From assembly GCA_016181965.1 (NCBI GenBank), contig JACOYH010000007.1, positions 7,110-71,109 on the forward strand: a DNA stretch of 64,000 bases, given 5' to 3'. The notes under the pieces were generated by a model. That model had not been told where the DNA came from and made no database searches. It saw only the letters and a program-made list of their open reading frames with translations. Origin of the DNA: Candidatus Nealsonbacteria bacterium (GTDB lineage Bacteria; Patescibacteriota; Minisyncoccia; Minisyncoccales; MHMH01). The position numbers were made by a program, and so were the translations under genes. The first letter of the stretch is position 1; each line of letters begins with the position of its first letter. Shown one piece after another: positions 2,849 through 58,792 of the stretch.

Positions 2849-3646
2849 CTAATTAATTTCGTAAGTAATGGTTACGGTAACTTCAATTTTATTCTCGCCG
2901 GTTTCTACTCGGGGAACATCTGGCATGCCGCTACCCATACTTATTTGCTCTAGCCCATACAAGAATACAGGGGCGGGAAATTCAGATTCTGAAAAGTTTA
3001 TGATCTTATTGAGATTGACTCCGAGCTGCGAAGACAACTCTTTTGCTTTATTTTTAGCCTCATCAATCGCCATTTTCCTTGCCTGATTTTTCAATTCATC
3101 TTCATTATCAACGCTGAACTGCAAACCAGAAACATCGGTTGCTCCCATATCAGTAGCAGATTGTATAATATTGCCGGTCTTTTCTAAATTTCTGATTTTT
3201 ACCCGTAGGGACTGATAGACCTCGTAGCCCACTAAAATCCTTTCGCCGGATGGACATGGATAATTAATGCATGTCTCTAAATCCAGCCACTCATAACGTG
3301 GAGAAATATTGAAGCTTGTTGTTTCTAAGTCCTTGCCATCAACGCCCAAATTCTTCGTGGCATCAATAATAGCGTTCATCTTTTTAGTATTTTCAGACAT
3401 GGCTTCCGCGACAGTTGTGGCCTCGTTTTGCACAGCAAAAGTTATCAACGCCAAATCGGGTTTGATAAAGACCTCTCCGGTTCCGGTAAACGATATGTTA
3501 TTTGACACTTCGGGCGCTTTACTCACAAAAATGTCTTTAGCAAATGAGATCGACATGATGAGCAGTAGCAAACTCGCCGATAGCAATAACGGAATAACAA
3601 AAAAGCATTTTTTTTCTGTAATATTCTCAAAAATTTTTAGACACAT
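2849..3646 (-). CDS. SIMPL-domain (DUF541) secreted protein
   Basis: N-terminal membrane anchor, then ISFTGTGEVFIKPDLALITFAVQNEATTVAEAMSENTKKMNAIIDATKNLGV and a C-terminal VETGENKIEVTVTITYEI, typical of the SIMPL family. Confidence 0.65.
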   Translation of the reverse strand: MCLKIFENITEKKCFFVIPLLLSASLLLLIMSISFAKDIFVSKAPEVSNNISFTGTGEVFIKPDLALITFAVQNEATTVAEAMSENTKKMNAIIDATKNLGVDGKDLETTSFNISPRYEWLDLETCINYPCPSGERILVGYEVYQSLRVKIRNLEKTGNIIQSATDMGATDVSGLQFSVDNEDELKNQARKMAIDEAKNKAKELSSQLGVNLNKIINFSESEFPAPVFLYGLEQISMGSGMPDVPRVETGENKIEVTVTITYEIN

Positions 3647-4536: not shown

Positions 4537-4561
4537 GTGTTAGACATTGAATGTCTAACAC
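4537..4561. repeat. Palindrome family P3, copy 1 (GTGTTAGACAT tga ATGTCTAACAC)
   Basis: Perfect 11-bp arms with a 3-nt centre, 13 nt upstream of the GerMN ATG. The same arms recur at 58705..58729. Confidence 0.85.
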
Positions 4562-4645: not shown

Positions 4646-4698
4646 CTTTACCGAGGACTGTCCTTGCCAGATTCTGGCAAGGACAGTCCTCGGTAAAG
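4646..4698. repeat. 53-nt perfect hairpin/palindrome (25-bp arms, 3-nt loop) just after the AlkD-like gene stop
   Basis: ctttaccgaggactgtccttgccag att ctggcaaggacagtcctcggtaaag. No U-tract follows on the minus strand. Confidence 0.85.
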
Positions 4699-4706
4699 TC
4701 GGATAG

Positions 4707-5420
4707 CTATTTCTTGCCTGTGAGGAGTTTCCTTCTTGTTTCCCGAACTGCTATTTTGGGCAAAAACTCTTTGTTTACATCTATATAAAATGCAACTCTT
4801 TGGCGATGATTTTGAATCAAAGCCCTGATTAACCAAGATACGGCCTTAGTAATTAAAATATCTTTTTCGCTCTTGAGCTTGTCTATATTTTCAAACGCCA
4901 TATCGGCCAATAAATGACTATTAGACTCTCTGACGGGCTTGGTGAGTAAAACTAAGGCAGCTCGTCTCTTGTGAACATCTTTATGTTTGACAAACATTTT
5001 GAGTAATTTTTTCCATGCATCCCATTTATTCAGCAATTCTTCGGCCGTAAATATGCTTTGACATAAGGAATCAACTTCTGACCAACCCTTGGCTCCGGTC
5101 AGCCATCTATCTAAATAGCGTGGCTCAATTTTCTTTCGTAATGTCGGTAAATATTCCAAAAGCTTTCCGCCGAAAGTTCTTTCAGTGTGCGATTTGCCTT
5201 CAAAAAATGAGTTTAACACCAAAAGAAGTTCTGCTAATGAAATATCTTTATGTTCCTTTACCCATTTTTTGGCAATCTGCCGCACTTGCGGATTGGTAAT
5301 GTTATATATAGGGCGAGGTGTACCCATGTATTTACCAGCATAATACCATCCCGTATTTTGAGGATTTGAATTTGCCACCCTTTTGATTTTCCTTAAAATT
5401 TCTTGATGAGATTGATCCAT
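4707..5420 (-). CDS. DNA alkylation repair protein (AlkD/AlkC-like HEAT-repeat family)
   Basis: 237 aa with ...IAKKWVKEHKDISL...GKSHTERTFGGKLL...WSEVDSLC...HKRRAALVLL...ILITKAVSWLIRAL, resembling the DNA_alkylation family. Confidence 0.65.
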   Translation of the reverse strand: MDQSHQEILRKIKRVANSNPQNTGWYYAGKYMGTPRPIYNITNPQVRQIAKKWVKEHKDISLAELLLVLNSFFEGKSHTERTFGGKLLEYLPTLRKKIEPRYLDRWLTGAKGWSEVDSLCQSIFTAEELLNKWDAWKKLLKMFVKHKDVHKRRAALVLLTKPVRESNSHLLADMAFENIDKLKSEKDILITKAVSWLIRALIQNHRQRVAFYIDVNKEFLPKIAVRETRRKLLTGKK

Positions 5421-5537: not shown

Positions 5538-6584
5538 TTAACTGAATTGCCCGATGATTTTATCGATTAAATTATTTAAGTTATGGTGCTTAACTACGAT
5601 TTCTCTTCTTAATTGAGGATCTGCGGGGGCTGTCATTAGATTAGTAATTTTATCGGCTAAATCATTGGCATTGCCTTTTTCAAAAATGTATTTATCGGCC
5701 AGAATTTTTTTATAGGCCTCGTTGCAGGTTAAAACAAGACAGCCCGCAGCCATGGCTTCCAGCACTACTTTATCCAAACTGCCGGTTGAGCTGGGGTTAA
5801 CAAATAAATCGGCCTCTTGATAATATTCTGGCATTTTGGCGTGAGGCGCGCCGGCCAAAAACTCTATATGTTCGTTTAGTTTATAATTTTTAGCTTGCTC
5901 TTTCAGGTCAGCCAGATATTTTTTTTCTGACTCTACGAGAGGTGTGCCCATAATTTTTAAGTTGATGTTGCAGACCTTTCTTTGGTTAACTAAAATATTC
6001 ATTGCTTCAATAAGAGTGGCGTGGCCCTTAACTGGCACGAGACGCGCCGCATATAACAAGCGGAAGGATAGAAGCCCGGCTTCCCGCGGAAGCCGGGCCT
6101 CTTGAACCGGCCGGAAAAGTTCGGTGTCTATTCCCTGTCCCAGCGCTTCTATTTTTTTGCTCGAAAGCCGACAGCCATCGGGCGAGGAAGTTACAATGTT
6201 GTCCACCAGTTTTTCTGCTATTTTCAGCTTAAGAGGCGTGGCTCCGTGCGCATACCATAAAATCAATTTTTTCCCGAAAATCTTAGCCAAAGGAAAGCTG
6301 GCGATAGCGAAAACAGGCCCCATATGAACATAAACGCCTCTGGCTTCCGATAAATGCGCGAGCAAAAATTTCTGCAACCTCCAGAGCTGCCTTATTTTAG
6401 AATAGCCCCTTTCTTTTCCCAAAGATAAAACCTTAATATTTTTGGGCAAATGATGTTCGCCCTCCGAAAGACAAATAGCGTAAACCTCATCTAACCGTTC
6501 TGAAAACTTTTCCAGCGTGCGATAAAAAAAGCTAAGGTTGTCGTCGTTGATATCTATTTTCTGGACAATGATAATCAGCTTCAT
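5538..6584 (-). CDS. glycosyltransferase family 1 (GT4-type, GT-B fold)
   Basis: C-terminal VNPSSTGSLDKVVLEAMAAGCLVL (E-x7-E region). The stop overlaps the next gene's start. Carries palindrome P1 copy A. Confidence 0.8.
   Translation of the reverse strand: MKLIIIVQKIDINDDNLSFFYRTLEKFSERLDEVYAICLSEGEHHLPKNIKVLSLGKERGYSKIRQLWRLQKFLLAHLSEARGVYVHMGPVFAIASFPLAKIFGKKLILWYAHGATPLKLKIAEKLVDNIVTSSPDGCRLSSKKIEALGQGIDTELFRPVQEARLPREAGLLSFRLLYAARLVPVKGHATLIEAMNILVNQRKVCNINLKIMGTPLVESEKKYLADLKEQAKNYKLNEHIEFLAGAPHAKMPEYYQEADLFVNPSSTGSLDKVVLEAMAAGCLVLTCNEAYKKILADKYIFEKGNANDLADKITNLMTAPADPQLRREIVVKHHNLNNLIDKIIGQFS
6071..6101. repeat. Palindrome family P1, copy A, in-frame inside the GT4 gene
   Basis: gaaGCCCGGCTTCCcgcGGAAGCCGGGCctc, translated on the minus strand as EARLPREAGL. 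Confidence 0.85.
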
Positions 6585-7588: not shown

Positions 7589-8627
7589 GTTCTTTAACAA
7601 CATCGTTCCAAGTATAATTCATGGGGATTTTCTTTATTTTCTCAACATAATCCGCGTAATTTTTCTCATCCAAAAGATATAAAATCTTTCTCTCTAAATC
7701 AGCCCCGTCTCTCGGATCTATTAAAATCAAACTATTTCCAACGGTATCCAGGCCGGTTTCTTTAGTCAGCAAAACTGGCTTTCCCATGGCCAGACATTCC
7801 AAAGCAAAATTGGGGGTAATTTCGGTGAGCGAGGGCAGTACGCAAATATAACTTCTGCCCATCTCTGCCATTAATTCTTGATGTGGCAGAGGAGACGCAA
7901 AAGTTACCTTGTCATATTTTATTAGATTTGTTTTTTCCGGCCCTTCGCCGATTATTTTGAGCGTTAACGGTTTGTCTGTTTTTGACAAGACATTATAGAA
8001 TACTTTGATTAAAAATTCCAGGTTCTTCAGTTTCAAAAGCCGCCCCGCGTATAGAATCTTGTAGTTTTCTGGCGTCGTTTGCAAAGGCGCTTCTTTGGCC
8101 TCGGGAAAGGGATTTTTTATGATGACTGTTTTCTCTGGCCTAAAGCCGTAATGTTTAAAATATATTTGCCGCTGAAAATCGCTTGTAAAAATTATTTTGT
8201 CGGTACTCTTGAGGATTTTTCCGATAATAAACATCGTTAACCTTTCTCGCAACGTTTTTACGGAACTCTCGTAGTATTCCCGTAAAGTTTGTTCGATTCT
8301 GCCTTGCTCCACCGCTCTTTCCCACAAAAAGTCGCCGCCGAGCCGTATGAAAAATCGTTTTCTCAAGATTTTACCGCAAAAGCAGGCGGGTATGCCGCAG
8401 CTTATGGCATTAAAAGCATAAATGGCATCCGCCCCCAAAGACGCTTTCAGGAGATTAGCGACATAGCAGGCAATTCTTAATGGCTGAGGAATTTTTCTAA
8501 GGTTGCCGTAAGAAACAACGGTTGTAGAAATTCCCCTGCCCTCAAATCCTTGCTTGAGTTTTTGGGCATATGTTGCCGGGCCCCCAATATCTGGCGGGTA
8601 AATTGGCGTGGCTAAAACAATTTTCAT
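7557..8627 (-). CDS. glycosyltransferase family 1 (GT4-type)
   Basis: MKIVLATPIYPPDIGGPATY... and VLPSLTEITPNFALECLAMGKPVLL. Confidence 0.8.
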   Translation of the reverse strand: MKIVLATPIYPPDIGGPATYAQKLKQGFEGRGISTTVVSYGNLRKIPQPLRIACYVANLLKASLGADAIYAFNAISCGIPACFCGKILRKRFFIRLGGDFLWERAVEQGRIEQTLREYYESSVKTLRERLTMFIIGKILKSTDKIIFTSDFQRQIYFKHYGFRPEKTVIIKNPFPEAKEAPLQTTPENYKILYAGRLLKLKNLEFLIKVFYNVLSKTDKPLTLKIIGEGPEKTNLIKYDKVTFASPLPHQELMAEMGRSYICVLPSLTEITPNFALECLAMGKPVLLTKETGLDTVGNSLILIDPRDGADLERKILYLLDEKNYADYVEKIKKIPMNYTWNDVVKEHEKSFISWSN

Positions 8628-9709
8628 CTTTTTACTTTTTGATAAATATCATATACCCTATTGGCGATATTTTGCCAGTTATATTTTGGCAAGACATTTT
8701 TTGCATTTTCAACCAGCATTTTGGCAAAATCAGGGTTGGATTGAATCTTGAATAAGGCCTCGCTAATTTGGCCAACATTGCCCGGCTCAACCAAAAGGCC
8801 GGTTTTCTGGTCTTCAATCAAGTCCAAAATACCTCCTACCCCGCTGGCAACAACCGGCAAGCCAGCGGCCTGCGCTTCCAAAACAACAATGCCAAAACCC
8901 TCTTGAATAGAGGGCAGAACAAAACAGTCGGCCATTGCCAAGTAAAAAGGAATTTTTTCATTGGGAATTTCTCCGAGAAATTCCACGCTATCTTCTGATT
9001 TTAATTGTTTAACTAAATTCTCAAGGTCCTTTCGCCTACTACCATCGCCGATAACCATTAACTCACTTGGTTGACACCTGGTGTCAACCAACGCTCTTAT
9101 TAAATATTCCACTCCCTTGACTTTTTCTAATCGGGCCACCGTAATGACAATAAACTTCTCGCGGGGCTGTCTCTTGATGTTTTCAAATCTCGATAGGTCC
9201 ACTCCGTTGGGAATAACTGCAACCTTTTTTACACCTATGTCTTCAAAATTTTTCTTGACGGCCGAAGAAGCGGCAATACAAAAAGCGGCTTTTCTGTAAA
9301 TAAAATTTTTCAAAGGATTTCTTTTCTTTTCGAGCCGTTGAACGGTAGTAATATAGGGAACTCTTGTTACGACAGAGAGGCAAAAACCCAGAAAGCTGCT
9401 TAGAAAACCTTGGCAGTGTAAAATATCAATTTTCTCTTGCCGCATTAAAATTAATGATTTCAGGAAAATACAGGGCAATAGGGAAACGGTATAGATTTTA
9501 GGGGAACGCGACAAATCAGATAAGGTAAAAAACGAAGTCCGGAAAATGCGCAATCCGCCTGCGGCCTCCTTGTTGGGCCGATTCTTTACCCTGCCTGTCA
9601 CCACGAAAACCTCGGCTTTTTTGGAAACATTCTCGGCAATATTGCGGGTCCATGTCTCAATGCCTCCAACAACCGGATAATAATGAAGCGCCGGCATCAA
9701 TATTTTCAT
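8624..9709 (-). CDS. glycosyltransferase family 1 (GT4-type)
   Basis: MKILMPALHYYPVVGGIETW... and VLPSIQEGFGIVVLEAQAAGLPVVASGVGG. Carries palindrome P2 copy 1. Confidence 0.85.
   Translation of the reverse strand: MKILMPALHYYPVVGGIETWTRNIAENVSKKAEVFVVTGRVKNRPNKEAAGGLRIFRTSFFTLSDLSRSPKIYTVSLLPCIFLKSLILMRQEKIDILHCQGFLSSFLGFCLSVVTRVPYITTVQRLEKKRNPLKNFIYRKAAFCIAASSAVKKNFEDIGVKKVAVIPNGVDLSRFENIKRQPREKFIVITVARLEKVKGVEYLIRALVDTRCQPSELMVIGDGSRRKDLENLVKQLKSEDSVEFLGEIPNEKIPFYLAMADCFVLPSIQEGFGIVVLEAQAAGLPVVASGVGGILDLIEDQKTGLLVEPGNVGQISEALFKIQSNPDFAKMLVENAKNVLPKYNWQNIANRVYDIYQKVKR
9067..9091. repeat. Palindrome family P2, copy 1, in-frame inside a GT4 gene
   Basis: TTGGTTGACACC t GGTGTCAACCAA, 12-bp perfect arms, encoding VDTRCQPS on the minus strand. 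Confidence 0.85.
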
Positions 9710-15278: not shown

Positions 15279-16439
15279 ATGAAGGAAAAAACAAACCAAA
15301 TTTCTAATGGGGTGAAAAGGGTCTTATTTTTGGTTACTCAATCGGAAATGGGGGGCGCCCAGAGGTATATTTTTGAGTTGGCGCGCGGTCTGGATAAGCA
15401 AAAATACGAAATTTCAGTTGCCGCCGGCGAAGGAGACGGAGAATTATTTGAAAGGATTGCGCCCCTGCAAGTCAAAACGCACCAACTAATAAATCTTAAA
15501 CGCGCGCCAAATCCCTATCTCCTTATTGCTGCGGTCGTGGAGATAAGGAGATTGCTTAAAAAAGAAAAGCCGGATGTCTTGTTTCTGTGCTCCACCACGG
15601 CCGGATTGCTCGGCTCTATCGCAGCTATTTTCTTGCCCGCAAAAGTAGTATACAGAATTGGCGGCTGGGCATTCAGGGATCCGCGGACTTTTTGGAAGAA
15701 TTGGCTGATTTTGCTCGCAGAGAAGATGACTGCTCCCCTTAAAGATAGAATCATTGTCAATTCGGAAATTGATCGTAATTTAGCTATAAAATACAAAATT
15801 GCTCCGCCGGGGAAAATAATCAAAATCTATAACGGCATTGACCCGGATTCTTTAAACTTTTTAAGCCAACAAGAAGCCCGGAACCGGTTGACACCAGGTG
15901 TCAACCAAGGTGTCAACCAAGTCGTGGTTGGAACGGTGGCAAATTTTTATAAAACCAAGGGATTAGAATATTTAATCGAGGGCTTCGCGAGGTCCGACCT
16001 CGCCAAAGGCGGGTCAAATCTCATTATCATCGGCGAGGGGCGAGAACGGCCGAAACTGGAAACCTTAATTAAAAAACATAAGATAGAGGATAAAGTCATT
16101 TTAGCTGGACGTCTGCCTGACGCTTACAAATACTTGAAGGCCTTTGATGTTTTCGCGCTTCCCTCCCTAAAAGAGGGCTTTCCTTGGATAATTCTAGAGG
16201 CAATGGCCGCTGAAGCGCCGATTGTCGCTACTAAAGTCGGCGCTCTGCCAGAGATCATTGATGACGCTAAAGAAGGATTTTTAGTAGAGCCGAAAAATAG
16301 CAAGGCCTTGGCTGAAAAAATAAAATGGGCGTTAGAACATCAGCAAGAAGCCAAAGAGATGACCGCTCGAGCCAAAATAAAAGTTCTCGCTCGATTTTCT
16401 CTCTCTAAAATGATTGAGGCCACTCAAAATGAACTCTAA
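15279..16439 (+). CDS. glycosyltransferase family 1 (GT4-type)
   Basis: ALPSLKEGFPWIILEAMAAEAPIVATKVGALPEI. Transcribed divergently from the 5538-15140 operon. Carries palindrome P2 copy 2. Confidence 0.85.
   Translation: MKEKTNQISNGVKRVLFLVTQSEMGGAQRYIFELARGLDKQKYEISVAAGEGDGELFERIAPLQVKTHQLINLKRAPNPYLLIAAVVEIRRLLKKEKPDVLFLCSTTAGLLGSIAAIFLPAKVVYRIGGWAFRDPRTFWKNWLILLAEKMTAPLKDRIIVNSEIDRNLAIKYKIAPPGKIIKIYNGIDPDSLNFLSQQEARNRLTPGVNQGVNQVVVGTVANFYKTKGLEYLIEGFARSDLAKGGSNLIIIGEGRERPKLETLIKKHKIEDKVILAGRLPDAYKYLKAFDVFALPSLKEGFPWIILEAMAAEAPIVATKVGALPEIIDDAKEGFLVEPKNSKALAEKIKWALEHQQEAKEMTARAKIKVLARFSLSKMIEATQNEL
15886..15920. repeat. Palindrome family P2, copy 2, with a tandem duplication of one arm, in-frame inside a GT4 gene
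   Basis: GGTTGACACC a GGTGTCAACC aa GGTGTCAACCAA, encoding PGVNQGVNQ. Confidence 0.85.
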
Positions 16440-18351
16440 ACTGCTCAAAACGATAATTTTTATATTGATTTTGGGCCTCTACGCCTCACTTCTTTTTTAT
16501 AAAATTGACTTCTTCTCGCTATCCATAAACGACTTGGGCCGGCATATTCAAAACGGCCGAACGCTTCTTGAAACAAGAGACATTCTCACAACCAACTTTT
16601 ATTCTTACACTAATCCTGATTTCTCTTTTATCAATCACCATTGGCTAAGCGGCGTTATTTTTAATTTTCTGCATTCATTCTTTGGATTCGGTGGTCTGGT
16701 CGTATTTAAGATAATTGTTTTAACGGCCGCTTTCGCGCTTGTTTTTCTTGCCGCAGTAAAGAAAGCCAATTTCTGGCTGGTGGCTCTTTTCTCTTTGCCA
16801 ACCATGCTCATCCTGAAAGAACGCGCCGAACTTCGGCCGGAAATTTTCAGCTATCTGTTCACGGCTATTTTTATTTATTTTTTGATTGGTTTTGAAAAAA
16901 ATCCTGCGGGCAAAAGAATTTTCTGGCTTATTCCCCTGCAAATTTTATGGGTAAATTTGCACAGCTTTTTCTTTGTTGGCATTCTGCTGACAGCCGGCTT
17001 TCTGCTGGAAAAAATTCTTCTCAACCTTAAAGATTTTAAAAAGCTGGCCCTGCTTTTAATAATGTTGATAGCGGCCTGTTTTATCAACCCCAACGGCATT
17101 AAAGGGGCTCTCTATTTTTTGGACATTTTTGGAAATTATGGTTTTAGAGTTGCCGAAAACCAATCGCTCTCTGCGGTTAAAGACATGTATTGGTGGGACA
17201 TATCAATTCAGATTTTTCTGCCATTGGCATATCTTTTGGCCTTCAGTTTTCTTTTGAATATCAAGCAAAGACCGATCTTTTATTTTGTCTCCGGGCTCGG
17301 CGCAGCCATCGCCTCTTTCTTGGTTATCAGGGGCTTGCCGCTTTTTGCTTTGATTTTCCTGCCGGCCATTGCATTTAATTTCAATAAAATTTTTCTTGGC
17401 ATTAAGAACCATTTCGGCAATTTTTTTGACAAAGCGATGGCCTTATTGCTGGCAATTATTTTAGTTTACGCTGGCTGGGCTTTACATAAAACAAGCGTCA
17501 TTTCAACCGCGGCTCCGCAAGAGCGGGGCGCGGGCTTGGTTGAACATACCAATGGCGCCATAACATTTTTTAAGGAAAATAATCTCAAGGGACCAATTTT
17601 TAATGACTATAACGTTGGCAGTTATCTTATTTACTATCTCTTCCCCGAGGAAAAGGTCTTTGTTGATAACCGGCCCGAGGCCTACCCCGCCGCTTTTTTC
17701 CAAAACATTTATTATCCCATACTGCAGCAAGAGGAAAAATGGCGCGAAGCAGAAGCAGAATATGATTTCAATGTCATATTTTTCAGTCCGCAAAATTTAG
17801 GCAATGAAGAAGGAATATTTTTAATAAACCGCTTGAGCGATCCCGCGTGGCCTTTAATTTATGCCGACGCTTATTCTGTTATTTTACTGAAAAATACTCC
17901 GGAAAATGAAGATATGATTAAAAAATTTCAAATTACCAGGGACAATATCAACGAAAAAATTAATCCTCTGCTGGCATCGGATAAAATAGCGGACAGGGTG
18001 GCGGCTATAAACTTGTTTCTCGCCATGGGCCGGGAGGATTTGCTGGTTCCGGCCCTGCAAAATATATTGGAAAAATGGCCTACATACAGCGGCGGCTGGC
18101 TGCTTCTGGGCCAATTGGCCAGCATGCAGGAAGACGAAGAAAGTTTGAAATCAGCCATTTCTTTTATGCAAAAAGCCATTGACTTAGGCGAAAAAACATC
18201 CGAGGCCTACACGTATTTGGGTCTGACATATTTTAGAACCGGCCAGTTTGAGAAATCCGAGCAAGCCCTTAAAACAGCTCTGCAAATCAACCCCAACCGC
18301 CAAGACGCCAAAAATTATCTATCGCAACTTCAGCAATACTTGAAAAAATAA
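16429..18351 (+). CDS. polytopic membrane protein with a C-terminal TPR domain (possible GT-C-like glycan polymerase/transferase)
   Basis: About 12 hydrophobic segments, then TPR-like repeats (...AYTYLGLTYFRTGQFEKSEQALKTALQINPNRQDAKNYL). The ORF-track start at 16414 is TTG; the ATG is at 16429. Confidence 0.55.
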   Translation: MNSKLLKTIIFILILGLYASLLFYKIDFFSLSINDLGRHIQNGRTLLETRDILTTNFYSYTNPDFSFINHHWLSGVIFNFLHSFFGFGGLVVFKIIVLTAAFALVFLAAVKKANFWLVALFSLPTMLILKERAELRPEIFSYLFTAIFIYFLIGFEKNPAGKRIFWLIPLQILWVNLHSFFFVGILLTAGFLLEKILLNLKDFKKLALLLIMLIAACFINPNGIKGALYFLDIFGNYGFRVAENQSLSAVKDMYWWDISIQIFLPLAYLLAFSFLLNIKQRPIFYFVSGLGAAIASFLVIRGLPLFALIFLPAIAFNFNKIFLGIKNHFGNFFDKAMALLLAIILVYAGWALHKTSVISTAAPQERGAGLVEHTNGAITFFKENNLKGPIFNDYNVGSYLIYYLFPEEKVFVDNRPEAYPAAFFQNIYYPILQQEEKWREAEAEYDFNVIFFSPQNLGNEEGIFLINRLSDPAWPLIYADAYSVILLKNTPENEDMIKKFQITRDNINEKINPLLASDKIADRVAAINLFLAMGREDLLVPALQNILEKWPTYSGGWLLLGQLASMQEDEESLKSAISFMQKAIDLGEKTSEAYTYLGLTYFRTGQFEKSEQALKTALQINPNRQDAKNYLSQLQQYLKK

Positions 18352-20885: not shown

Positions 20886-20953
20886 TATTTTATTATACCA
20901 TTATGTCAGCATGATGTCAGGATGTCCGGCACCCCTCAATTCTGTACTTGTTA

Positions 20954-21007
20954 GGTCTGTTAGAGCCAGGCTCTAACAAGCTTGTTAGAGCCTGGCTCTA
21001 ACAGACC
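20954..21007. repeat. 54-bp perfect palindrome centred on ACAAGCTTGT
   Basis: ggtctgttagagccaggctctaacaag|cttgttagagcctggctctaacagacc. An extra taacagacc copy follows at 21011-21023. Confidence 0.9.
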
Positions 21008-21026
21008 TGCTAACAGACCTAACAGA

Positions 21027-26204: not shown

Positions 26205-26276
26205 ATCGGATATCGATTGTCTATTATAGTTATGACGGAAAAGAAGATATTTTGTTACACCAATATCCAGCCATCG

Positions 26277-26330
26277 TTTGTGATAGGCCGGGCTTATCAC
26301 AAGCTTGTGATAAGCCCGGCCTATCACAAA
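26277..26330. repeat. 54-bp perfect palindrome centred on ACAAGCTTGT, between the sigma and anti-sigma genes
   Basis: tttgtgataggccgggcttatcacaag|cttgtgataagcccggcctatcacaaa. Confidence 0.9.
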
Positions 26331-26349
26331 CAAACCGCTTATTACAAAC

Positions 26350-28445: not shown

Positions 28446-31400
28446 AAGCCATAAAATCTATAGGGGGTAAACTATCTTTGCAAAAGACGATTTTAACGAT
28501 TGCCATAGCCGCAATCGTTTTTTCTTTCTTGTCCAATTATTCTTTGGCCGGCCAAACAAAAGTCAACCAGCAAGAAATGCAAAGAATCAAACAGGGCTTG
28601 GATATTGTTAAAACAGCTTCAAGTTTCGGAAGCGTTCTTCTTGACGATGGCGGCTTAATGAAAGCGCTCAACACGGTTATCAAGGGCGGCAGCGCGGCCA
28701 CGGATGTCACCTACGGCCTGCTTGTCTTGAGCGCCGTCAACGAAATGGAACTAATGGATTTGGTGCTTTCGCAGGAGTATAAAACAATAGAAAGAGAATA
28801 TTTTGAACAAATTTTAGACGAGAGGACCAATTTAATATCTTATTGGAGAGGAGTTGGTTTTGACTTGCCCAAAGTGCTCTCTGGACAGATTACCGGCCCC
28901 ATGGCTGGCTTAACTTTAAACAGCTTTGCTATGACCAACAAAATTATCCATATTGCCACCGCGTTTGAAGTGTTAAAAAAAGGCCAACTGTATGATGGCC
29001 TATGGTATTACTTTGATTTAAGAAAAAATAGCAATGAGCCGCATGAAATAGCTTGGCGCGAAGCAAAAATGATACTTGGTTTTGCGACTAATTCAGTGGG
29101 ATTTCACGGACCAACACAAAGACAGAATAAAAGAATCGAGCTCGAAGCTCAATTCACATCCCTTTGGGATAAATGGGGGCTATACGCCACGCCAGGAGGC
29201 ATCAGTAATCAGTATCAAGAACAAGCAAAAGAGGAAATGAGAAGCATGCTGGCCGTGGCAGCTGAAACGCAAAGGTTAGCTGAAATAGAAAAACAAAAAG
29301 AACCATCTTGGCTATCAAAACAAATAGATGAACTCAAAACACTCGCGTCAGGCCTTGGAGAAAAAATTCACACTATGGTCTCCAAGATCGCCGACGCCAA
29401 TCCCTTTAGCGCCGGCCCAATTGTCCAATCGCCAAAAGATACACCGGTGGCACCGGTGCGAAATTCGGCCGGGCTTCAGAGCCCCAAAAACCGAGAATCA
29501 GAAGACCAAACCCCGACAGAAAGAGGCGAAGAAGCCCGGCTTCCTCGGGAAGCCGGGCTTCAGGTTCCACGAGAGGTCCCACGAGAGGTCAAACCTCAAG
29601 CGCCTCAAGAGATTGAAAGTGAAAAGACAACAGAGGAGAAAGTGAAAGATAAAGAGGTCCGAGAAGAGGAAAAAATTAAAATAGTCGAGATCAAACCCAC
29701 GCCAGATGAGCCGGGACTTTGCGAGAAAATTGCCGGGGACTTGCCTAAAAGATATAGGGCTTTCATTAACGAGGTGGCCTGGATGGGCAGTCAAAATTCG
29801 CCAAATGACGAATGGATTGAGCTGAAAAATATTTGGGGCTTACCCGTCAATCTTAACGGCTGGCAATTACAAGACAAAGACCAGCAAATAAAAATAATTT
29901 TTGAAGAAAATGATACTATTCCGGCCAGCGGATATTATCTTTTAGAAAGGACAAATGATGACTCAACGCCCAAAGCCAAGGCCGACAAAATATACACGGG
30001 CGCTTTAGGCAATAACAATGAGGCCTTATATTTATTTGATAATGACTGCCGATTGGAAGACGAAGTTATAGCCGATCCCAGTTGGCCAGGCGGCGACAAT
30101 ACCGCTAAAAAAACAATAGAACGGCTGGATCCCTTATACTGGTACACAAGCGCTTCTATAGGGGGCAGCGCCGGAAAAAACAACGGCACGCCTCCGGCAA
30201 TTTTAAAGCACCCCAGCGCGCCAACTCCCCCTTTGCCTGCTTCAGCGCCGACTTATCTTACAATTTTGATTGACGAAGTCAGAATTGATGGCGATGGAAA
30301 TATCAAAAACGATTCCGTTAAACTCTACAATCCCAACGATACGGCGGTTGATTTAACAAATTGGTATTTGCAAAGGAAAACAGCGAACTCTTCCGTATTC
30401 TCAACTTACGCGCCAAAATCGCTTTTTGCCGGAAAATCCATTGAGGCAAACGGATACTTTTTAATTGCTCACGCTTCTTCAACGTTCGCTACTTCCGCAG
30501 ACGCCATCACAACTTACTCTCTGACTCGAAATAATACCCTCGTCTTAAAAAATCCAAATGGTGAAATAGCGGACACGGCGGAGCCAGCAGAAAATAACGA
30601 AGAAACGGCGTCGTTATCGGTTGTTATCAACGAAATCGCTTGGGCAGGCGCTAAGGCCAATTCTGCCGATGAGTGGATTGAACTTTACAACAACACTACT
30701 TCAGGTATTGATTTGACTAATTGGTCAATTTTGAAAGATGACGAGGAATGGATTATCTTTTCCACCTCAAGCATCGTCTCGCAGGGATATTATTTATTGG
30801 AAAGAAGCGACGATCAGACAATCAGCGATATTACGGCCGACCAATTTTTTACCGGCGCTCTAAGCAACAGCGGCCAAAAATTAGAATTAAAAAATGCAGC
30901 CGGTGACTTAATGGACTTAATTGATTTTTCTTCTAATTGGCCAGCCGGCGAAGCCGCCCCAAACTATCTTTCAATGGAAAGGATATCTTCTACTTTCAGC
31001 GATTGGGCTAGCAATAATCGAATCTCAACAAACGGCTTGGGTAGCGGCAATAATGCCATCAACGGCACGCCGAAAGAAAAAAATAGCGTTTCGAAGTCCT
31101 TCACAGAAGTTGTCGGCGATCGCGTATTTTCAGACGACTTTACGCTTACAAAACTTGGCAGTCCTTATATTTGGGAGGGCTCCCTTATCATGGAGCAGGG
31201 GACTAAATTAACCGTCGAACCCGGCGTTACCGTAAAATTCAAGCACACTGCCCCTAACCAGCCCCACGCTCAAGTAAAAATAAAAGGCGAGATGGAGGCC
31301 ATTGGAACAAACGAGCAAGAAATAACTTTTACGTCTTTTCAGGAAAATAATTATTGGGACGGGCTTTATTTTGAGAATTCAAATTCTACTCTTGAAAATG

Positions 31401-35932: not shown

Positions 35933-35958
35933 ACTACTATACTACATAGTATAGTAGT
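35933..35958. promoter_or_regulatory. 26-bp AT-rich palindrome, site 1 of 3 (candidate operator)
   Basis: ACTACTATACTA ca TAGTATAGTAGT, 103 nt upstream of the clpB ATG and 60 nt after the NDT-like gene stop. Confidence 0.6.
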
Positions 35959-36504: not shown

Positions 36505-36530
36505 ACTACTATACTACATAGTATAGTAGC
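36505..36530. promoter_or_regulatory. 26-bp palindrome, site 2 of 3
   Basis: ACTACTATACTA ca TAGTATAGTAGc, 1 nt after the regulator's stop codon and 74 nt upstream of the NDT-like ATG. Confidence 0.6.
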
Positions 36531-36531
36531 A

Positions 36532-37002
36532 TTACTGTATTTGTTTTTTGCGTTTTGTGGTCGGTTTTTCTGAAGAATCTAAAAGATTAAAAAGCAGAAA
36601 ATGAAGCGGGTATCGCTTTTTAAGCCATCCAAAAGTCAGCGGCTGACTTTGTTGGAGCTCACGCTCGCCTGCTTTCCACTGCAACTCTAATTCTTTTTCT
36701 AAACGCGGAAGTATTTGAGCATATCCTCCATCTCTGCCTTGCAACCACTTATGCACCCCTGCGATGGTAATGTGGCTCGTATGCATAGCATTGCGAATAT
36801 CATCGTAGCTTTTGCCCTCAAGCAGAAAGCGAGCAATGCGAATTCTTCGCGCCAACATAATAGCTTCTGTTTCGCTCAAAAGATCGCGGAAAAAATTCTC
36901 TATCTGCTCTCTTGTTTCCAATAAAATCACTAAACTCCATAATTCATTCAGAAGATTGTGTTTTTCGTCTTTGGAGATTGTTTTTGGCTGAACCCTCGGC
37001 AT
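36532..37002 (-). CDS. TrpR-like/YerC-YecD-family helix-turn-helix protein
   Basis: ...REQIENFFRDLLSETEAIMLARRIRIARFLLEGKSYDDIRNAMHTSHITIAGVHKWL... Confidence 0.65.
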   Translation of the reverse strand: MPRVQPKTISKDEKHNLLNELWSLVILLETREQIENFFRDLLSETEAIMLARRIRIARFLLEGKSYDDIRNAMHTSHITIAGVHKWLQGRDGGYAQILPRLEKELELQWKAGERELQQSQPLTFGWLKKRYPLHFLLFNLLDSSEKPTTKRKKQIQ

Positions 37003-37022: not shown

Positions 37023-37054
37023 AACACTACTATACTATATAGTATAGTAGTGTT
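37023..37054. promoter_or_regulatory. palindrome site 3 of 3, here a perfect 32-bp palindrome abutting the regulator's -10 box
   Basis: aacACTACTATACTA ta TAGTATAGTAGTgtt. On the minus strand a TATAAT (37023-37018) follows directly, 15 nt before the ATG at 37002. Confidence 0.65.
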
Positions 37055-45376: not shown

Positions 45377-46816
45377 CTAATGATATTTTAACATATTTTC
45401 CCTATTTAACCGCCAGGTAAGACAGCCCAATGCAAAGTAAGCCGCTACCAGCCAAACCCAATGAATCTTTTCTAATACTAAAAGGGCCATGGGCACGCCA
45501 GAAAACCAATGAATCAGTGTCGCAATATAAGTTAAAAAGAGCCAAGTCGGCCAAGAAAGCAAAATCCCGAGCGGGGCAATGATCATTCCGGATATTCCAA
45601 AGATAAAAATCAAAATAGTAATTGGCGCTAAAAAGGGAACAATCAAGAGGTTGGTAATCGGAGACAGCAAGGGAATGGAGCCAAAATTATACACTAAAAT
45701 TGGCAAGGCAAAAAACTGTGCTGATAAAGTAGCAGAAATAGTGGTTCTTGCGGGAAATATCTTGGGATCGGGAATTTTCCTGAACCAATAGAAAAAAATT
45801 GGCTGAAGGTAGATTAGTCCCAAAATGGCCAGAAAAGAAAGCTGAAAGCCGACGTCTATGGTTAAAAGCAGGGGGTTTTCAAGTAGCATAAGAGTTGCTG
45901 CAAATAGCACCCCCCTCGAGGCCGCTGATAAGCGACCGAGACACTGGGCCGCCATTAAAAAGAAAGCCATAAGACCGGCCCTAACCGCCGATGCAGGAGC
46001 CCCGATCATTAGAATGTAAAGAGCGAGCAGAATGATTGATAGATAAAATGCCTGTTTTCTTCGAAAGCCAACTAAAATAGCAAGAGACATTATCAAAAAA
46101 GCGATAATGGTGATATTCATCCCGGAAACAGCGGCAATGTGCCTAGTGCCCGTGATATTTAATTTATTTTTCCACTCTTTAGAAAAGCCCCTCTCGTCTC
46201 CCGAGAACAGGGCCTCTAAAAAACCTATCTGCGGCGGGGCGATAAATTTTTCGGCAGTTTCCTGAAATTTATTTTTAAAAGAAATTGTTGCGGCTATTAT
46301 CGGATTCCCCCGATCTTTTGCGATGAGCTCAATTTTCGGTAAATAAATCACCGAATAAATTCCGTCTTTGGCTAAATAATCTTTATAATTAAAATCCTCA
46401 AATGCTTGAGGAACTTGCAGCTTGCCCATAATTTTTATTTCATCGCCGTATTGATACTCCGGATATCTGCTCGCCGTCACCAAAATCTTTTCGCCTTGTT
46501 GAAGCACGGTTAGTTGAGTGCTATTTTCTCTTATATCTGATTCGCTTACTATTATTCCGGTGAAAGTAATTTGCCGCTCCGCGGGATAAACAATTTTCGA
46601 CAAAGCCGCCTGATGCCTCCATATGCCAGCCGTCAAAAACAACAGGCAAAATCCAACAACAATGCACTTCTTATGGCGCCAAAAAACGCTGATTAAAAAC
46701 ACTCCCAAAACTAAAACTCCCAGCATAATCGGCTGGAAGATAGAACTTACCGAGCTCAAAAAAATACCTCCAACAAAAGATAAGCAGAAATATAGAAAAA
46801 CTCTGGACTTTGTCAT
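45377..46816 (-). CDS. comEC: ComEC/Rec2-family DNA-uptake channel protein (no beta-lactamase domain)
   Basis: DUF4131-like N-terminus plus a competence domain (TGTRHIAAVSGMNITIIAFLI). The ATG at 46816 shares a base with the upstream TGA. Confidence 0.75.
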   Translation of the reverse strand: MTKSRVFLYFCLSFVGGIFLSSVSSIFQPIMLGVLVLGVFLISVFWRHKKCIVVGFCLLFLTAGIWRHQAALSKIVYPAERQITFTGIIVSESDIRENSTQLTVLQQGEKILVTASRYPEYQYGDEIKIMGKLQVPQAFEDFNYKDYLAKDGIYSVIYLPKIELIAKDRGNPIIAATISFKNKFQETAEKFIAPPQIGFLEALFSGDERGFSKEWKNKLNITGTRHIAAVSGMNITIIAFLIMSLAILVGFRRKQAFYLSIILLALYILMIGAPASAVRAGLMAFFLMAAQCLGRLSAASRGVLFAATLMLLENPLLLTIDVGFQLSFLAILGLIYLQPIFFYWFRKIPDPKIFPARTTISATLSAQFFALPILVYNFGSIPLLSPITNLLIVPFLAPITILIFIFGISGMIIAPLGILLSWPTWLFLTYIATLIHWFSGVPMALLVLEKIHWVWLVAAYFALGCLTWRLNRENMLKYH

Positions 46817-47094
46817 CAAGAAAAAGTCAATAAACTGGCGAGGCCTTTGATGCCCACAAAAGCAGCCAAGCCGAGCAGCAAAAAGTGCGGCAAAGAAGCA
46901 GCCAATCCAAAAACTAAAATAACGCCAACCGCTATATCAATCCAACTAAAAAAATTCGTAATAAAAAGCACGCCTTTCAAAATCATAACGGCGCCAATCG
47001 CCAAGGCCATGCCTCCGGGGGCGGCCATGCCGTAGGCGCCTGACACAAAAAGAAGCCCTGCCAATATGTCTATAAAACCAAGTATTTTTGTCAT
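46816..47094 (-). CDS. small (92 aa) three-TM membrane protein
   Basis: MTKILGFIDILAGLLFVSGAYGMAAPGGMALAIGAVMILKGVLF... Confidence 0.45.
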   Translation of the reverse strand: MTKILGFIDILAGLLFVSGAYGMAAPGGMALAIGAVMILKGVLFITNFFSWIDIAVGVILVFGLAASLPHFLLLGLAAFVGIKGLASLLTFS

Positions 47095-55275: not shown

Positions 55276-55309
55276 AAGGTTGGGGATAATCTCCCCAACC
55301 TTGGTTTTT
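55276..55309. terminator. bidirectional Rho-independent terminator (pth on +, paralogue 1 on -)
   Basis: aaggttgggga taatc tccccaacctt with GGTTTTT downstream on + and A6 (U6 on -) upstream. Confidence 0.75.
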
Positions 55310-55986: not shown

Positions 55987-57987
55987 ATGGAAAAGTCAAC
56001 CCTAGACCGGGTTTTAATCGTTGGCATCACCCCCTACTTCTTGGAAAGGGAGAATTTTTGGTTTGAAGAAAACCTGCAAAAGATATTAACGGCGAGAAAA
56101 ACCCAGTCGTTCTTTGAAGATAATATTGTTTTTTTAGAAAAGGGCAGTGATTTCAATTTTTCGCGGCTGCTCCGGCAACTTGACGAAATGGGCTATGAAA
56201 TAGTGCAAGAAGTCGCGGAACCCGGCGAAATAGCAAGGCATGGCGGCACGATTGACATTTTTCCGGTCAACTTAAATCGGGCCGTTAGAATTAATTACTT
56301 CGGCAACAAGATTGAAGAAATAGAACAATCAAATACTTGTGTTAGCGATGAAAAAAAAGACAAAGAACGGCTGAAGAAAAAACTAAAGAATCAAAAAATA
56401 TATTCCCAATTGCAAGGCCTAAAGCCGGGCGATTTTTTGGTGCACCTAGACCACGGCATCGGGCTCTTGACGGGGATAACTGGAAGTCCGGCTTCCGCGG
56501 GAAGCCGGACTTCCTCGTTTCCGTTTCCGCAGAAATATTACGTTTTAGAATATGCCTCGGGCGATAAATTATATGTGCCGCTGGGCCTTGAGAGAAAACT
56601 TTCGCGCTATGTCGGCTTTATTAATCCTAAAATTTCCCGGTTGAGCGCGCCGACTTGGTTGAATACGAAAAGGAAAGTCAAAGAGGAAACCGAAAAGTTA
56701 GCCGCAGAGCTTCTGGAAATATACGCTCAACGAGAAGTGGCTCGGCGCCAGCCCTACAGCCGCGATTTTGAAATGGAAGCGAAAATTCAAGAGACGTTTG
56801 CCTATCTTGAAACACCCGATCAGGCGCAGGCAACAAATGACATTGCCAAGGACCTTGAAGAGTCGGAAATGCCTATGGACAGGATTGTCTGCGGGGACGT
56901 TGGTTTTGGCAAAACAGAAATCGCCCTAAGGGCTGTCATTAAGGCGGTAAGCAACGGCAAGCAGGCGGCCATGATTTGCCCCACCACTATTTTGGCTTCA
57001 CAGCACTATCAAAACTTCACCCACCGGCTGAACAATCTGCCAGTCAAAATCGCGCTGATAAGCCGCCTGCAATCTAAAAGCGAACAAAAAACAATTGCCG
57101 GACAATTAAAGGCGGGGGAAATAGACATTGCCATTGGCACTCACCGGCTGCTTTCTGCCGATATTGCATTTAAGAATTTGGGCATGCTCGTTATCGACGA
57201 CGAGCAGAAATTCGGCGTGGAGCAAAAAGAGCGTCTCAAAAGAATCCGGCCGCAGTTAGATATTCTCTCGCTGTCGGCTACGCCCATTCCCCGCACTCTT
57301 TATTTTGCTCTCTCATCGCTAAAGAATATCAGTATTGTTAAAACGCCTCCGCCGGAACGGTTGCCTGTTGAGACCTTTATCAAACCACGCTCGGAAAAAA
57401 TTATCCGGCGGGCAATTGAGGCGGAAATCACCAGAGGAGGCCAGGTTTATTATTTGCACAACCGAGTTGCCACCATTGAAATGGTTAAAAAATCTTTGGC
57501 GGAAAAATTCCCCCATCTGAATGTTGGCGTTGTTCACGGCAGAATGAATGAACCGGAAATGGTGTCGGTCATGCGCGATTTCAAAGAAAAAAATATTGAT
57601 GTGCTCGTAGCCACCACTATTATTGAAAACGGCATAGACCTCTCCAACGCCAATACTTTGGTTGTGGCCGATGCCGCCAAACTCGGCTTGGCGCAGGCGC
57701 ACCAAATCAGGGGCAGAGTGGGTCGCTCAAATGTTCGGGCCTTTGCCTATTTTCTGCATTCGGGCAAATTAAACGATTTAGCAAAAAGGCGCCTGCAAGC
57801 GCTCAAAGAGGCGCAAAATCTTGGGTCGGGCTATAAAGTCGCCCTGCAAGATATGGAAATACGAGGGGCAGGCAATATTCTCGGCAAAGAACAATCGGGC
57901 AGTGTCAATCAAGTGGGTCTGAATTTGTACTGTCAGATGTTAAGCGAAGTGATTGAAAAACTGAAAACTGCCAAACCTGCCCCGTAA
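55987..57987 (+). CDS. mfd: transcription-repair coupling factor Mfd, shortened (666 aa)
   Basis: UvrB_inter-like N-terminus (GEIARHGGTIDIFP), CarD_TRCF/RID (LKPGDFLVHLDHGIG...YVLEYASGDKLYVPL), and SF2 motifs GDVGFGKTE, DDEQKFG, SATPIPRTL. No visible D2 or D7 regions. Confidence 0.85.
   Translation: MEKSTLDRVLIVGITPYFLERENFWFEENLQKILTARKTQSFFEDNIVFLEKGSDFNFSRLLRQLDEMGYEIVQEVAEPGEIARHGGTIDIFPVNLNRAVRINYFGNKIEEIEQSNTCVSDEKKDKERLKKKLKNQKIYSQLQGLKPGDFLVHLDHGIGLLTGITGSPASAGSRTSSFPFPQKYYVLEYASGDKLYVPLGLERKLSRYVGFINPKISRLSAPTWLNTKRKVKEETEKLAAELLEIYAQREVARRQPYSRDFEMEAKIQETFAYLETPDQAQATNDIAKDLEESEMPMDRIVCGDVGFGKTEIALRAVIKAVSNGKQAAMICPTTILASQHYQNFTHRLNNLPVKIALISRLQSKSEQKTIAGQLKAGEIDIAIGTHRLLSADIAFKNLGMLVIDDEQKFGVEQKERLKRIRPQLDILSLSATPIPRTLYFALSSLKNISIVKTPPPERLPVETFIKPRSEKIIRRAIEAEITRGGQVYYLHNRVATIEMVKKSLAEKFPHLNVGVVHGRMNEPEMVSVMRDFKEKNIDVLVATTIIENGIDLSNANTLVVADAAKLGLAQAHQIRGRVGRSNVRAFAYFLHSGKLNDLAKRRLQALKEAQNLGSGYKVALQDMEIRGAGNILGKEQSGSVNQVGLNLYCQMLSEVIEKLKTAKPAP
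56482..56514. repeat. Palindrome family P1, copy C, exactly 11 codons inside the Mfd RID domain
   Basis: GGAAGTCCGGCTTCC gcg GGAAGCCGGACTTCC, 15-bp perfect arms. Starts at a codon boundary and encodes GSPASAGSRTS. Confidence 0.9.
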
Positions 57988-58019: not shown

Positions 58020-58045
58020 AAAAAGTTGAGGACAATGTCCTCAAC
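58020..58045 (-). terminator. Rho-independent terminator of paralogue 2
   Basis: Minus-strand guugaggac auu guccucaac followed by U5. Confidence 0.65.
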
Positions 58046-58049
58046 TATA

Positions 58050-58646
58050 TTAAAGGAAAAATAGCCAGCGCCAAAGAAAGACAGCGGATAAACCAGACGC
58101 AATGAAAGACGCAAACACCGCTATATTTCTCTTGCCCATAAGGAAGAGAGCGTCAAAGAACGCAACGAAACAGGAACTAGCGAGTAGAGCCATAAGCGCG
58201 GCAAGGAATTGCCACAGGCCCAATATAATAGAATCCTGCACAATGATGTCATGTCCTGCGAGTCCGACGAGATAAGTCCTGACTTTTGCGCTTCTGTCGC
58301 GGGCAAAAAAACTATTAGAAACCCAGTACTCATCTACCGCTTGCGTAAGCTCTGCCGGCAAAACAACTGTGGTCGTTAGGCCGTAGGATGTTAAATAGTA
58401 ATCGGCCTCGGACTTGGCCCGGCTAAAACTTTCAATGCCCCTTATAAGTTCCCGCATTTCCTTGCTGGTGACAATCTGGTCGGCGGCAACTTGCCCCGTG
58501 GTTGCCAAGACCGCATCTCTCTTTTCGATCAGTATGCGCTCTTCTTCAATTAGCTTCTTCTGGCCTGCTTTATCATCAGCCGTGGCCATATCAGTTGTGC
58601 CCAGCAGCAATAGTGCCGCGAAAATCGCCAATATCGCTCTTTTCAT
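58050..58646 (-). CDS. secreted/membrane protein of unknown family, paralogue 2
   Basis: ATG at 58646 (MKRAILAIFAALLLLG...) preceded by GGGAGG. EKRDAVLATTGQVAADQIV..KEMREL...FARDRSAKVRTYLV; ends LFFL. The longer ORF-track start at 58793 reads through repeats. Confidence 0.7.
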   Translation of the reverse strand: MKRAILAIFAALLLLGTTDMATADDKAGQKKLIEEERILIEKRDAVLATTGQVAADQIVTSKEMRELIRGIESFSRAKSEADYYLTSYGLTTTVVLPAELTQAVDEYWVSNSFFARDRSAKVRTYLVGLAGHDIIVQDSIILGLWQFLAALMALLASSCFVAFFDALFLMGKRNIAVFASFIASGLSAVFLWRWLFFL

Positions 58647-58704: not shown

Positions 58705-58729
58705 GTGTTAGACATCGGATGTCTAACAC
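58705..58729. repeat. Palindrome family P3, copy 2
   Basis: GTGTTAGACAT cgg ATGTCTAACAC, 59 nt upstream of the paralogue-2 ATG. Confidence 0.85.
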
Positions 58730-58752
58730 CTTGACCGATGAACGGCGATATG

Positions 58753-58792
58753 TTGTCTGTGCAGGTTTGTCTGTGCAGGTTTAACCTGCACA
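58753..58792. repeat. 14-nt tandem duplication whose second copy forms a 21-nt palindrome
   Basis: ttgtctgtgcaggt ttgtctgtgcaggt tta acctgcaca. The palindrome TGTGCAGGT tta ACCTGCACA lies at 58772-58792. Confidence 0.85.

Follow-up and report, generated by a model that had tools for sequence, protein, structure and literature searches.

Why does one and the same perfect palindrome lie inside two glycosyltransferase genes that are otherwise diverged, and at different places in each? The question is raised by a stretch of 64,000 nucleotides (contig JACOYH010000007.1, positions 7,110 to 71,109; hereafter the window) from the metagenome-assembled genome (MAG) of a Candidatus Nealsonbacteria bacterium, a member of the candidate phyla radiation (CPR)/Parcubacteria. 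The palindrome, which we call P2, occurs once in each of two genes of glycosyltransferase family 4 (GT4). We propose, with a probability of about 0.5, that P2, as one of several palindrome families in this genome and its relatives, is a self-maintaining coding hairpin repeat kept by template switching, and that the copy in the first gene is a templated patch. Such an element has apparently not been described before for CPR bacteria, and a literature search found no paper on such palindromic elements in CPR coding genes.

Two copies of P2 in diverged GT4 genes

The core of P2 is a 21-mer, GGTTGACACC-W-GGTGTCAACC (W, A or T), with exactly two matches in the window, at 9069-9089 and 15886-15906, where none was expected. 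There were still just two matches when the centre was left free and up to three mismatches were allowed, and zero matches to the 21-mer were found in 100 dinucleotide-preserving shuffles. The features concerned are as follows.

8624-9709, minus strand: host gene 1, GT4 glycosyltransferase of 361 amino acids (Pfam; 120 orthologues; AlphaFold2 model with a mean predicted local distance difference test score of 89.6)
15279-16439, plus strand: host gene 2, GT4 glycosyltransferase of 386 amino acids (Pfam; 120 orthologues; AlphaFold2 model with a mean score of 90.7)
9067-9091, minus strand: P2 copy 1, TTGGTTGACACCtGGTGTCAACCAA = TTGGTTGACACC-T-GGTGTCAACCAA, with 12-nt arms and a 1-nt centre
15886-15906, plus strand: P2 copy 2, GGTTGACACCaGGTGTCAACC = GGTTGACACC-A-GGTGTCAACC, with 10-nt arms
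15897-15920, plus strand: tandem duplication of the right arm, GGTGTCAACCAA at 15897-15908 and again at 15909-15920, encoding GVNQ GVNQ

Both host genes are intact, with Glyco_transf_4 and Glycos_transf_1 domains at Pfam E-values of 1e-17 to 1e-44, and their products are 29% identical to each other by BLASTP. The original prediction, that the same palindrome lies in two diverged GT4 paralogues, was thus borne out by a 21-mer that is exact at both sites and was found in none of the 100 shuffles. On its coding (minus) strand, copy 1 reads GCG TTG GTT GAC ACC AGG TGT CAA CCA AGT (A-L-V-D-T-R-C-Q-P-S), and the codons of copy 2 are CGG TTG ACA CCA GGT GTC AAC C (R-L-T-P-G-V-N). The encoded peptides are ALVDTRCQPS in gene 1 and LTPGVNQGVNQ in gene 2, and they contain the VDTRCQPS and PGVNQGVNQ that had been read earlier from the sequence. 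Two of the three frames of P2 are free of stop codons, and the two window copies use both of them.

The duplicated arm that had been noticed after copy 2 is the right arm plus AA, repeated in tandem at 15909-15920. Copy 2 and the duplication together have a left-right-right layout, from which two alternative hairpins can be folded; in the predicted RNA fold of this region the left arm pairs with the second copy of the right arm (-27.6 kcal/mol, z = -4.1). The RNA hairpin of P2 itself was predicted at -16.8 kcal/mol (z = -4.2), and the palindrome, at 21-25 nt and with a stem-loop, falls within the 20-40 nt of a unit of the repetitive extragenic palindromic (REP) type.

The two sites do not correspond in the proteins. 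In the BLASTP alignment, PGVNQGVNQ of gene 2 lies opposite a 12-residue gap of gene 1, and VDTRCQPS of gene 1 pairs with RSDLAKGGS of gene 2. In the AlphaFold model of gene 1, residues L207-S215 make up the end of helix 200-209 and the loop 210-214. In that of gene 2, T205-Q214 lies within the coil 205-215, between helix 197-204 and strand 216-220, and this coil is the interdomain linker that joins the two Rossmann-like domains. Neither P2 peptide was found in the other 238 retrieved orthologues of both genes. The sites are thus non-homologous, as had been proposed; the pairwise alignment did not bring them into one family-conserved column, and shared ancestry of the host genes does not explain the match, since the positions differ and the peptides are unique among the orthologues.

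The coding strands of the two copies have GGTTGACACCAGGTGTCAACCAAG in common over 24 nt, or 25 nt when the tandem copy is skipped. This stretch covers the sole asymmetric positions of the element, namely the central A and the 3' flank AAG(T). That both copies hold these positions in common points to direct copying rather than to convergence.

Both loops that carry P2 are hypervariable in length among orthologues (for the gene-1 loop, across 26 orthologues), and they are general hot spots for palindromes. At the gene-2 position homologous to the gene-1 P2 site lies a palindrome of another family:

15987-16003, plus strand: GCGAGGTCcGACCTCGC = GCGAGGTC-C-GACCTCGC, encoding ARSDLA

The gene-2 orthologue L031 retains the complete double unit, GAGGTCCGACCTCC-gcg-GGAGGTCGGACCTC, of which this palindrome is what is left in the window. 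In gene 1, at 8964-8984 of the window, GGAATTTCTCcGAGAAATTCC encodes the conserved EFLGEIP motif; orthologues of gene 1 have the same or a similar peptide there in other codons that are not palindromic, and this palindrome may be a quasi-palindrome that was perfected at synonymous sites.

Histories of the two copies

Linker palindromes lie on the same codons as copy 2 in gene-2 orthologues L025, L030, L032, L033 and L029 from related Parcubacteria. The linker of L025 and L030, with the codons TCG TTG AAA CT(T/A) AGT TTC AAC AAA against CGG TTG ACA CCA GGT GTC AAC CAA in the window, is a perfect palindrome, GTTGAAACT-W-AGTTTCAAC. This colinear alignment was read by eye from the codons and is gap-free once the 12-nt tandem copy is taken as an insertion, while MAFFT itself puts a four-codon gap straight after TTG. 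Read colinearly, the linker of L025 and L030 differs from P2 by two compensatory double substitutions and by no one-sided change in a 9-bp stem; by our own estimate, four changes would fall by chance as two complementary pairs with p ~1e-3. The linker peptide is not conserved, being LTPGVNQ in the window and LKLSFNK in L025 and L030.

The remaining linkers vary the same theme. That of L032 contains GAAACC-W-GGTTTC twice, and that of L033 contains AACGCC-C-GGCGTT and AACACC-G-GGTGTT; in L029 a degenerate core has been re-duplicated in inverted form to give 13-nt arms. The palindrome of L031, with 23-nt arms, is a different one. Across nine linker-type units, 98% of the cells pair and both sides have changed in four of six pairs; the covariation score was reached by none of 500 shuffles and collapsed in slid controls. 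Because the arms change in pairs and the peptide changes freely, the object conserved is the symmetry of the DNA or RNA and not the protein. As judged from these comparisons, the palindrome of the gene-2 linker is an old resident; it has been conserved while its changes were compensatory, and the constraint on it is that of a nucleic-acid hairpin rather than of a peptide. In a protein-level scan of 240 orthologues for palindrome-compatible peptides, shuffled proteins scored as often as the real ones (184 against 199; 247 against 189).

The variant of L025 is found there at two places: one copy is in the gene-2 orthologue (3273-3291), and the other (16972-17000) is intergenic and ends 5 nt ahead of the start codon of a PMT_2 glycosyltransferase gene. 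Copies agree within the genome, in the window as in L025, and between the genomes they differ symmetrically, a pattern of concerted evolution among P2-type copies as far as the aligned copies indicate. In gene-2 orthologues, further palindromes were seen at two more loops, which hold none in the window (L025 3533-3578; L030 residues ~117-130; L031). They include a doubled GGAGGTCnGACCTCC unit, and the L031 sites are at 5166-5190 and 5610-5656, the latter two including the linker palindrome with 23-nt arms; up to five palindromes can occupy a single GT4 gene.

The gene-1 copy has another history. At its site, the orthologues L024, L025 and L023, whose proteins are 65-76% identical to that of gene 1, have no palindrome, and they carry unrelated sequence of a different length. 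The absence of the palindrome from these three orthologues indicates that the gene-1 copy is lineage-specific. Its peptide is unique among 120 orthologues, and copy 1 is unchanged in three independent Logan assemblies (L007-L009). From these sequences, it looks like a recent secondary copy. The comparison with orthologues that had been suggested for this locus thus left the non-homologous match standing, and it showed that the two copies are not equivalent, the gene-2 copy being old and the gene-1 copy apparently secondary.

Palindromes elsewhere and known systems

In GTDB representative genomes and JGI metagenomes, the exact 21-mer was found only in one Saccharibacteria population (one GTDB MAG and JGI metagenome contigs) and as one Oscillospiraceae singleton. 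A pan-CPR spread of exact P2 was therefore rejected for these collections. The Oscillospiraceae singleton is at chance level (596 Gb / 4^20, ~0.5). A phage origin was also rejected: only two viral contigs contain the 21-mer, and these have 65% GC and hold it inside an unrelated palindrome with 22-nt arms.

In the Saccharibacteria, P2 is a multi-copy intergenic family with at least 15 sites, variants included; the copies that were checked against lists of open reading frames (ORFs) are intergenic, and several lie 50-75 nt past stop codons. Two subfamilies, GACACC/GGTGTC and GATACC/GGTATC, are linked by a compensatory change, and hybrids occur. The outer flanks vary yet stay palindromic (tc/ga, gc/gc, tt/aa, gtgc/gcac). 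When 21 copies of this wider family were pooled from Saccharibacteria and Nealsonbacteria, 92% of the cells paired, both sides had changed in six of 13 pairs, and none of 500 shuffles reached the score. Since a perfect palindrome carries the information of one arm (~20 bits) and CPR genomes have many such families, the identity between Saccharibacteria and Nealsonbacteria could, on sequence grounds, be a coincidence. In the Saccharibacteria MAG, P2 copies were also observed at a distance of 10-20 nt from arrays in which a 27-28-nt unit, aatctatgcagggtcaaaccctgattt, is repeated in tandem; this unit contains a palindrome of its own, CAGGGTcaaACCCTG (L006 1-85 and 1828-1880; L003, L004, L005).

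P2 is not alone in the window. When arms had to be 9 nt or longer and loops no longer than 6 nt, we counted ~25 distinct perfect palindromes, against 0-1 in shuffles; when arms of 8 nt were admitted as well, the count rose to 41, against 2-11 in shuffles. For 10-nt arms with a 1-nt loop, 12 palindromes were perfect where none was expected, while the class with two mismatches was at background (30 vs 30). The distribution is all-or-nothing. At least eight different palindrome families occur within the 64 kb, including members in TopA, Mfd and a surface protein with an LTD domain, and several families have two or three copies. Those that can be set beside P2 are listed here.

4537 and 58705: family GTGTTAGACAT.., two copies
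20958-21003, intergenic: two units TGTTAGAGCC-W-GGCTCTAACA (TGTTAGAGCCwGGCTCTAACA), at 20958 and 20983, which together form a 56-nt nested palindrome at 20953-21008
6074-6098, 29531-29561 and 56482-56514: family GAAGCCCGGCTTCC-N3-GGAAGCCGGGCTTC, inside the unrelated genes for a glycosyltransferase, the LTD-domain surface protein and Mfd
4537-4561, 20958-21003, 55276-55302, 58024-58046 and 58705-58729, plus P2: palindromes with GTTRR...YYAAC tips (R, purine; Y, pyrimidine)
20953-21008, 26276-26331 and 4646-4698, intergenic: perfect palindromes of 53-56 nt, each made of two smaller units

The units at 20958-21003 have their length, a CCWGG centre and GTT...AAC tips in common with P2, which suggests that they are possible relatives within a P2 superfamily. 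Eight window palindromes, P2 included, have the GTTRR...YYAAC tips; their interiors, 9 or 11 nt long, vary in sequence but keep their symmetry, and the eight may belong to one superfamily or have a recognition feature in common. Two copies of the GAAGCCCGGCTTCC-N3-GGAAGCCGGGCTTC family encode the identical peptide EARLPREAGL, and the copy in Mfd has a compensatory C>T/G>A pair. This Mfd palindrome (56482) lies within a 2+6-residue insertion relative to E. coli Mfd, and that of TopA (59473-59497, ATTGCCGAGGACaGTCCTCGGCAAT, encoding IAEDSPRQ) lies in a hairpin loop that is 2-4 residues longer than in solved TopA structures; both thus coincide with gaps in solved homologues. In 26276-26331, in 4646-4698 and in the linker of L029, the outer palindrome is perfect and the inner units are imperfect, and this combination can have arisen only by an inverted duplication that copied one arm, errors included.

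Several neighbouring observations belong here. In the L025 orthologue of the glycosyltransferase that holds the 6074 copy, a different, degenerate palindrome stands at that place, and the arm of the TopA palindrome has a relative in the intergenic palindrome 4646-4698. Two palindromes lie at 58705-58792, in the promoter region from which topA and a gene of unknown function (58050-58646, minus strand) diverge; in the one at 58756-58792 the left arm, TGTCTGTGCAGGTT, stands in tandem (left-left-right), the mirror image of the duplicated right arm of P2. Three copies of ACTACTATACTA..TAGTATAGTAGT (35933-35958, 36506-36529 and 37023-37054) surround a gene of the Trp_repressor family (36532-37002, minus strand) and are probably its operator sites. 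The window also contains a ComEC-type competence gene (45377-46819, with Competence and DUF4131 domains), and DNA uptake could in principle supply short hairpin fragments.

Among known systems, P2 appears by comparison most similar to REPs, to Rickettsia palindromic elements (RPEs) and to the coding palindromes of nematomorph mitochondria, and it differs from each in defining features. REPs and REPINs are hairpin repeats of 20-40 nt with many copies per genome and compensatory variation, and they are mobilised by REP-associated tyrosine transposases (RAYTs). P2 likewise forms hairpins and varies by compensatory changes; in Saccharibacteria it lies between genes, and several of the copies that were read follow shortly after a gene. 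The two REP superfamilies are defined by a conserved tag, GTAG or CGTC (PMC3733652). In contrast, P2 ends in TTGG/CCAA and CCGG/CCAA, with no GTAG or CGTC in or beside either window copy; it is perfect, with a 1-nt centre, and both window copies are inside intact coding sequences. No RAYT (Y1 HUH) domain was found among the 62 large ORFs scanned in these 64 kb of genome. RPEs are insertions of ~100-150 bp, restricted to Rickettsia, that lie in frame in unrelated genes and are tolerated since the peptide they add is on the protein surface. P2 resembles them in being in frame in coding genes at surface loop positions, but it is short (21-36 nt in this comparison), its host is a Nealsonbacteria member, and one of its sites holds an old resident that evolves by paired substitutions.

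In nematomorph mitochondrial genes, perfect inverted repeats of up to 284 bp have arms that both encode conserved protein segments (PMC6649704). As in P2, symmetry and coding are kept together in functional genes; P2, by contrast, is short and encodes variable loops, and the abstract of that report mentions no dispersal of one sequence between genes. Sponge mitochondria contain families of short hairpin repeats that have repeatedly invaded the genome (PMC2800124), and P2 is similar to them in this; those repeats are in an organelle and are described from intergenic regions, and the abstract of that paper mentions no covariation at orthologous coding sites.

Proposed maintenance and copying of P2

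The marks described above suggest a mechanism. Polymerase template switching between the arms would keep and rebuild the symmetry: it would homogenise the arms, invert the centre, and make inverted and tandem arm duplications. Quasipalindrome correction, as described in the literature, predicts arm homogenisation, spacer inversion, palindrome extension and perfect inverted repeats across species (PMC5941160, PMC8604942, PMC7202029), and the predicted marks are seen in P2 and its relatives. All 21 aligned copies of the wider family have A or T at the centre, and this base flips from one to the other between allelic or orthologous copies (L030 vs L025; L015 vs L006:3103), which agrees with the prediction that a switch of template from arm to arm inverts the spacer (PMC8604942, PMC5941160). 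Paired changes in both arms were thus found together with spacer inversion, as were inverted duplications that copied the imperfections of one arm.

In the proposed mechanism, a short templated patch placed in a hypervariable loop would have given rise to the gene-1 copy, its template being the resident linker copy or a third, unseen one, and no dedicated transposase would be needed. P2 may have persisted because two of its frames are stop-free, both being used, and because both sites are solvent-exposed loops of variable length; weak hairpin-destroying functions in reduced genomes may have helped. Its effect on the GT4 enzymes is probably nil, and any function would act at the level of the nucleic acid.

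Several points weigh against this proposal. Four of the eight orthologue DNAs were picked because their peptides looked palindromic, so that the apparent conservation of the linker palindrome is inflated; among the three orthologues chosen blind (L023, L025 and L030), two have it and L023 has none. The Saccharibacteria hybrids, which combine a GATACC arm with a GGTGTC arm, indicate that arm homogenisation is not always fast. Quasipalindrome correction is a mutational mechanism, described for single loci, and leaves identical distant copies unexplained. The copying of a 24-nt patch between sites on opposite strands and 6.8 kb apart has not been documented for template switching, a process that mostly takes place inside a single hairpin or replication fork, and this step is one that we infer. 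A hairpin under selection for a function would lead to covariation just as well. Finally, the window covers only 64 kb of the genome, and a third, master copy or a mobilising gene may lie elsewhere.

An alternative is that P2 is a minimal selfish element, resembling a REP or a miniature inverted-repeat transposable element (MITE), which is moved in trans by an enzyme encoded elsewhere (of the RAYT or IS200-type HUH kind), lands at random and survives in frame in permissive loops. Such an element would account for families with identical copies at unrelated genic and intergenic sites, for the multi-copy intergenic 21-mer of Saccharibacteria with its REP-like copies after stop codons, for the occupation of both stop-free frames, and for the eight palindromes whose constant GTTRR...YYAAC tips and variable interiors are as expected for ends recognised by an enzyme. 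However, no transposase, RAYT, recombinase or ParB domain was found by Pfam in the 62 large window ORFs scanned, P2 has neither the GTAG/CGTC tag nor a target-site duplication, and the linker copy, conserved in position and covarying, is not a recent insertion. The Saccharibacteria match, at ~20 bits, is itself possibly a coincidence amid many CPR families in 596 Gb. We consider this origin unlikely. A MITE in the strict sense, whose terminal inverted repeats enclose an internal segment between direct target-site duplications, was rejected, as the arms are separated by only 1 nt and the flanks, TT/AA and CC/AA, are not direct repeats.

Alternatively, P2 could be a selected cis-acting element of genes for cell-envelope glycosylation, either an mRNA hairpin (for the pausing of ribosomes at a domain boundary, RNase processing or pairing of the two self-complementary mRNAs) or the operator of a dimeric protein with co-evolving specificity. 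The window lies within a surface-polysaccharide cluster with several GT4 genes, a DegT aminotransferase, epimerases, a UDP-sugar dehydrogenase and a deacetylase, and both copies belong to the same glycan gene cluster in the window as in L025, where one ends shortly before the PMT_2 start. The covariation without peptide conservation, the copies that are identical inside a genome while both half-sites differ symmetrically between genomes, and the stable RNA hairpins (-16.8 to -27.6 kcal/mol, z about -4) would fit such a role. Against it, the sites lie deep in the coding sequences (607 to ~620 nt), the gene-1 site is no domain boundary, and in other orthologues these loops contain either unrelated palindromes or no palindrome; moreover, at least eight palindrome families per 64 kb are too many regulons for a genome with few regulators. 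This role is, in our judgement, rather improbable. The same doubt applies to a wider form of the idea, in which CPR hairpins in protein loops are conserved by selection and not just by mutational bias, and are copied between genes, with a shared function in ribosome pausing at domain boundaries, in the marking of mRNAs for a common RNase or binding protein, or in pairing of the self-complementary mRNAs of surface-glycan enzymes that work together; if it were true, RNA or DNA structure would partly dictate protein loop sequences in CPR bacteria. Specific candidates of this kind were examined and dropped. An internal promoter from the TTGACA of P2 has no -10 partner at 16-18 nt on either strand, which, with the location deep in genes, also speaks against a sigma-70 promoter or a transcription-factor operator; the whole window gave 0 Rfam matches above the gathering threshold; and it has no match to the parS site TGTTNCACGTGAAACA at up to three mismatches and no ParB gene.

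Identical sites in oppositely oriented genes of a surface-polysaccharide cluster also recall an inversion switch, in which the P2 copies would be the crossover sites for flipping a 6.8-kb segment and thereby for phase variation of a surface glycan. This is very unlikely: the copies are in different reading frames and, by manual translation, both recombinant genes would end within 3-21 codons; the window encodes no recombinase; the three independent assemblies are colinear through copy 1; and the gene order is the same as in relatives without the P2 pair. That the match is due to chance, or is a leftover of GT4 paralogue ancestry, is scarcely credible even though the hosts belong to one gene family and palindromes abound in the window. 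Besides the shuffles, the non-homologous positions and the absence of the peptides from all other orthologues, we calculate p ~3e-4 for any pair among the ~25 palindromes to have a 10-nt arm in common.

A 2026 survey ranked the CPR phyla first among all phyla in the density of perfect inverted repeats (PMC13155455). It gave no anatomy of such repeats, and the P2 locus provides a dissected case: a hairpin long held in a coding linker, covarying without conservation of the peptide, with an identical second copy in a paralogue, and similar behaviour of palindromes in the housekeeping genes TopA and Mfd. If the maintenance and copying of coding hairpins proposed here were general, CPR proteins would owe a large share of their loop insertions and hypervariable segments to a process at the nucleic-acid level, which would have to be considered in alignments and in the structure-based annotation of CPR proteomes. 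These bacteria would then also offer a natural system for the spread of palindromes by template switching or by an unknown mobilising activity.

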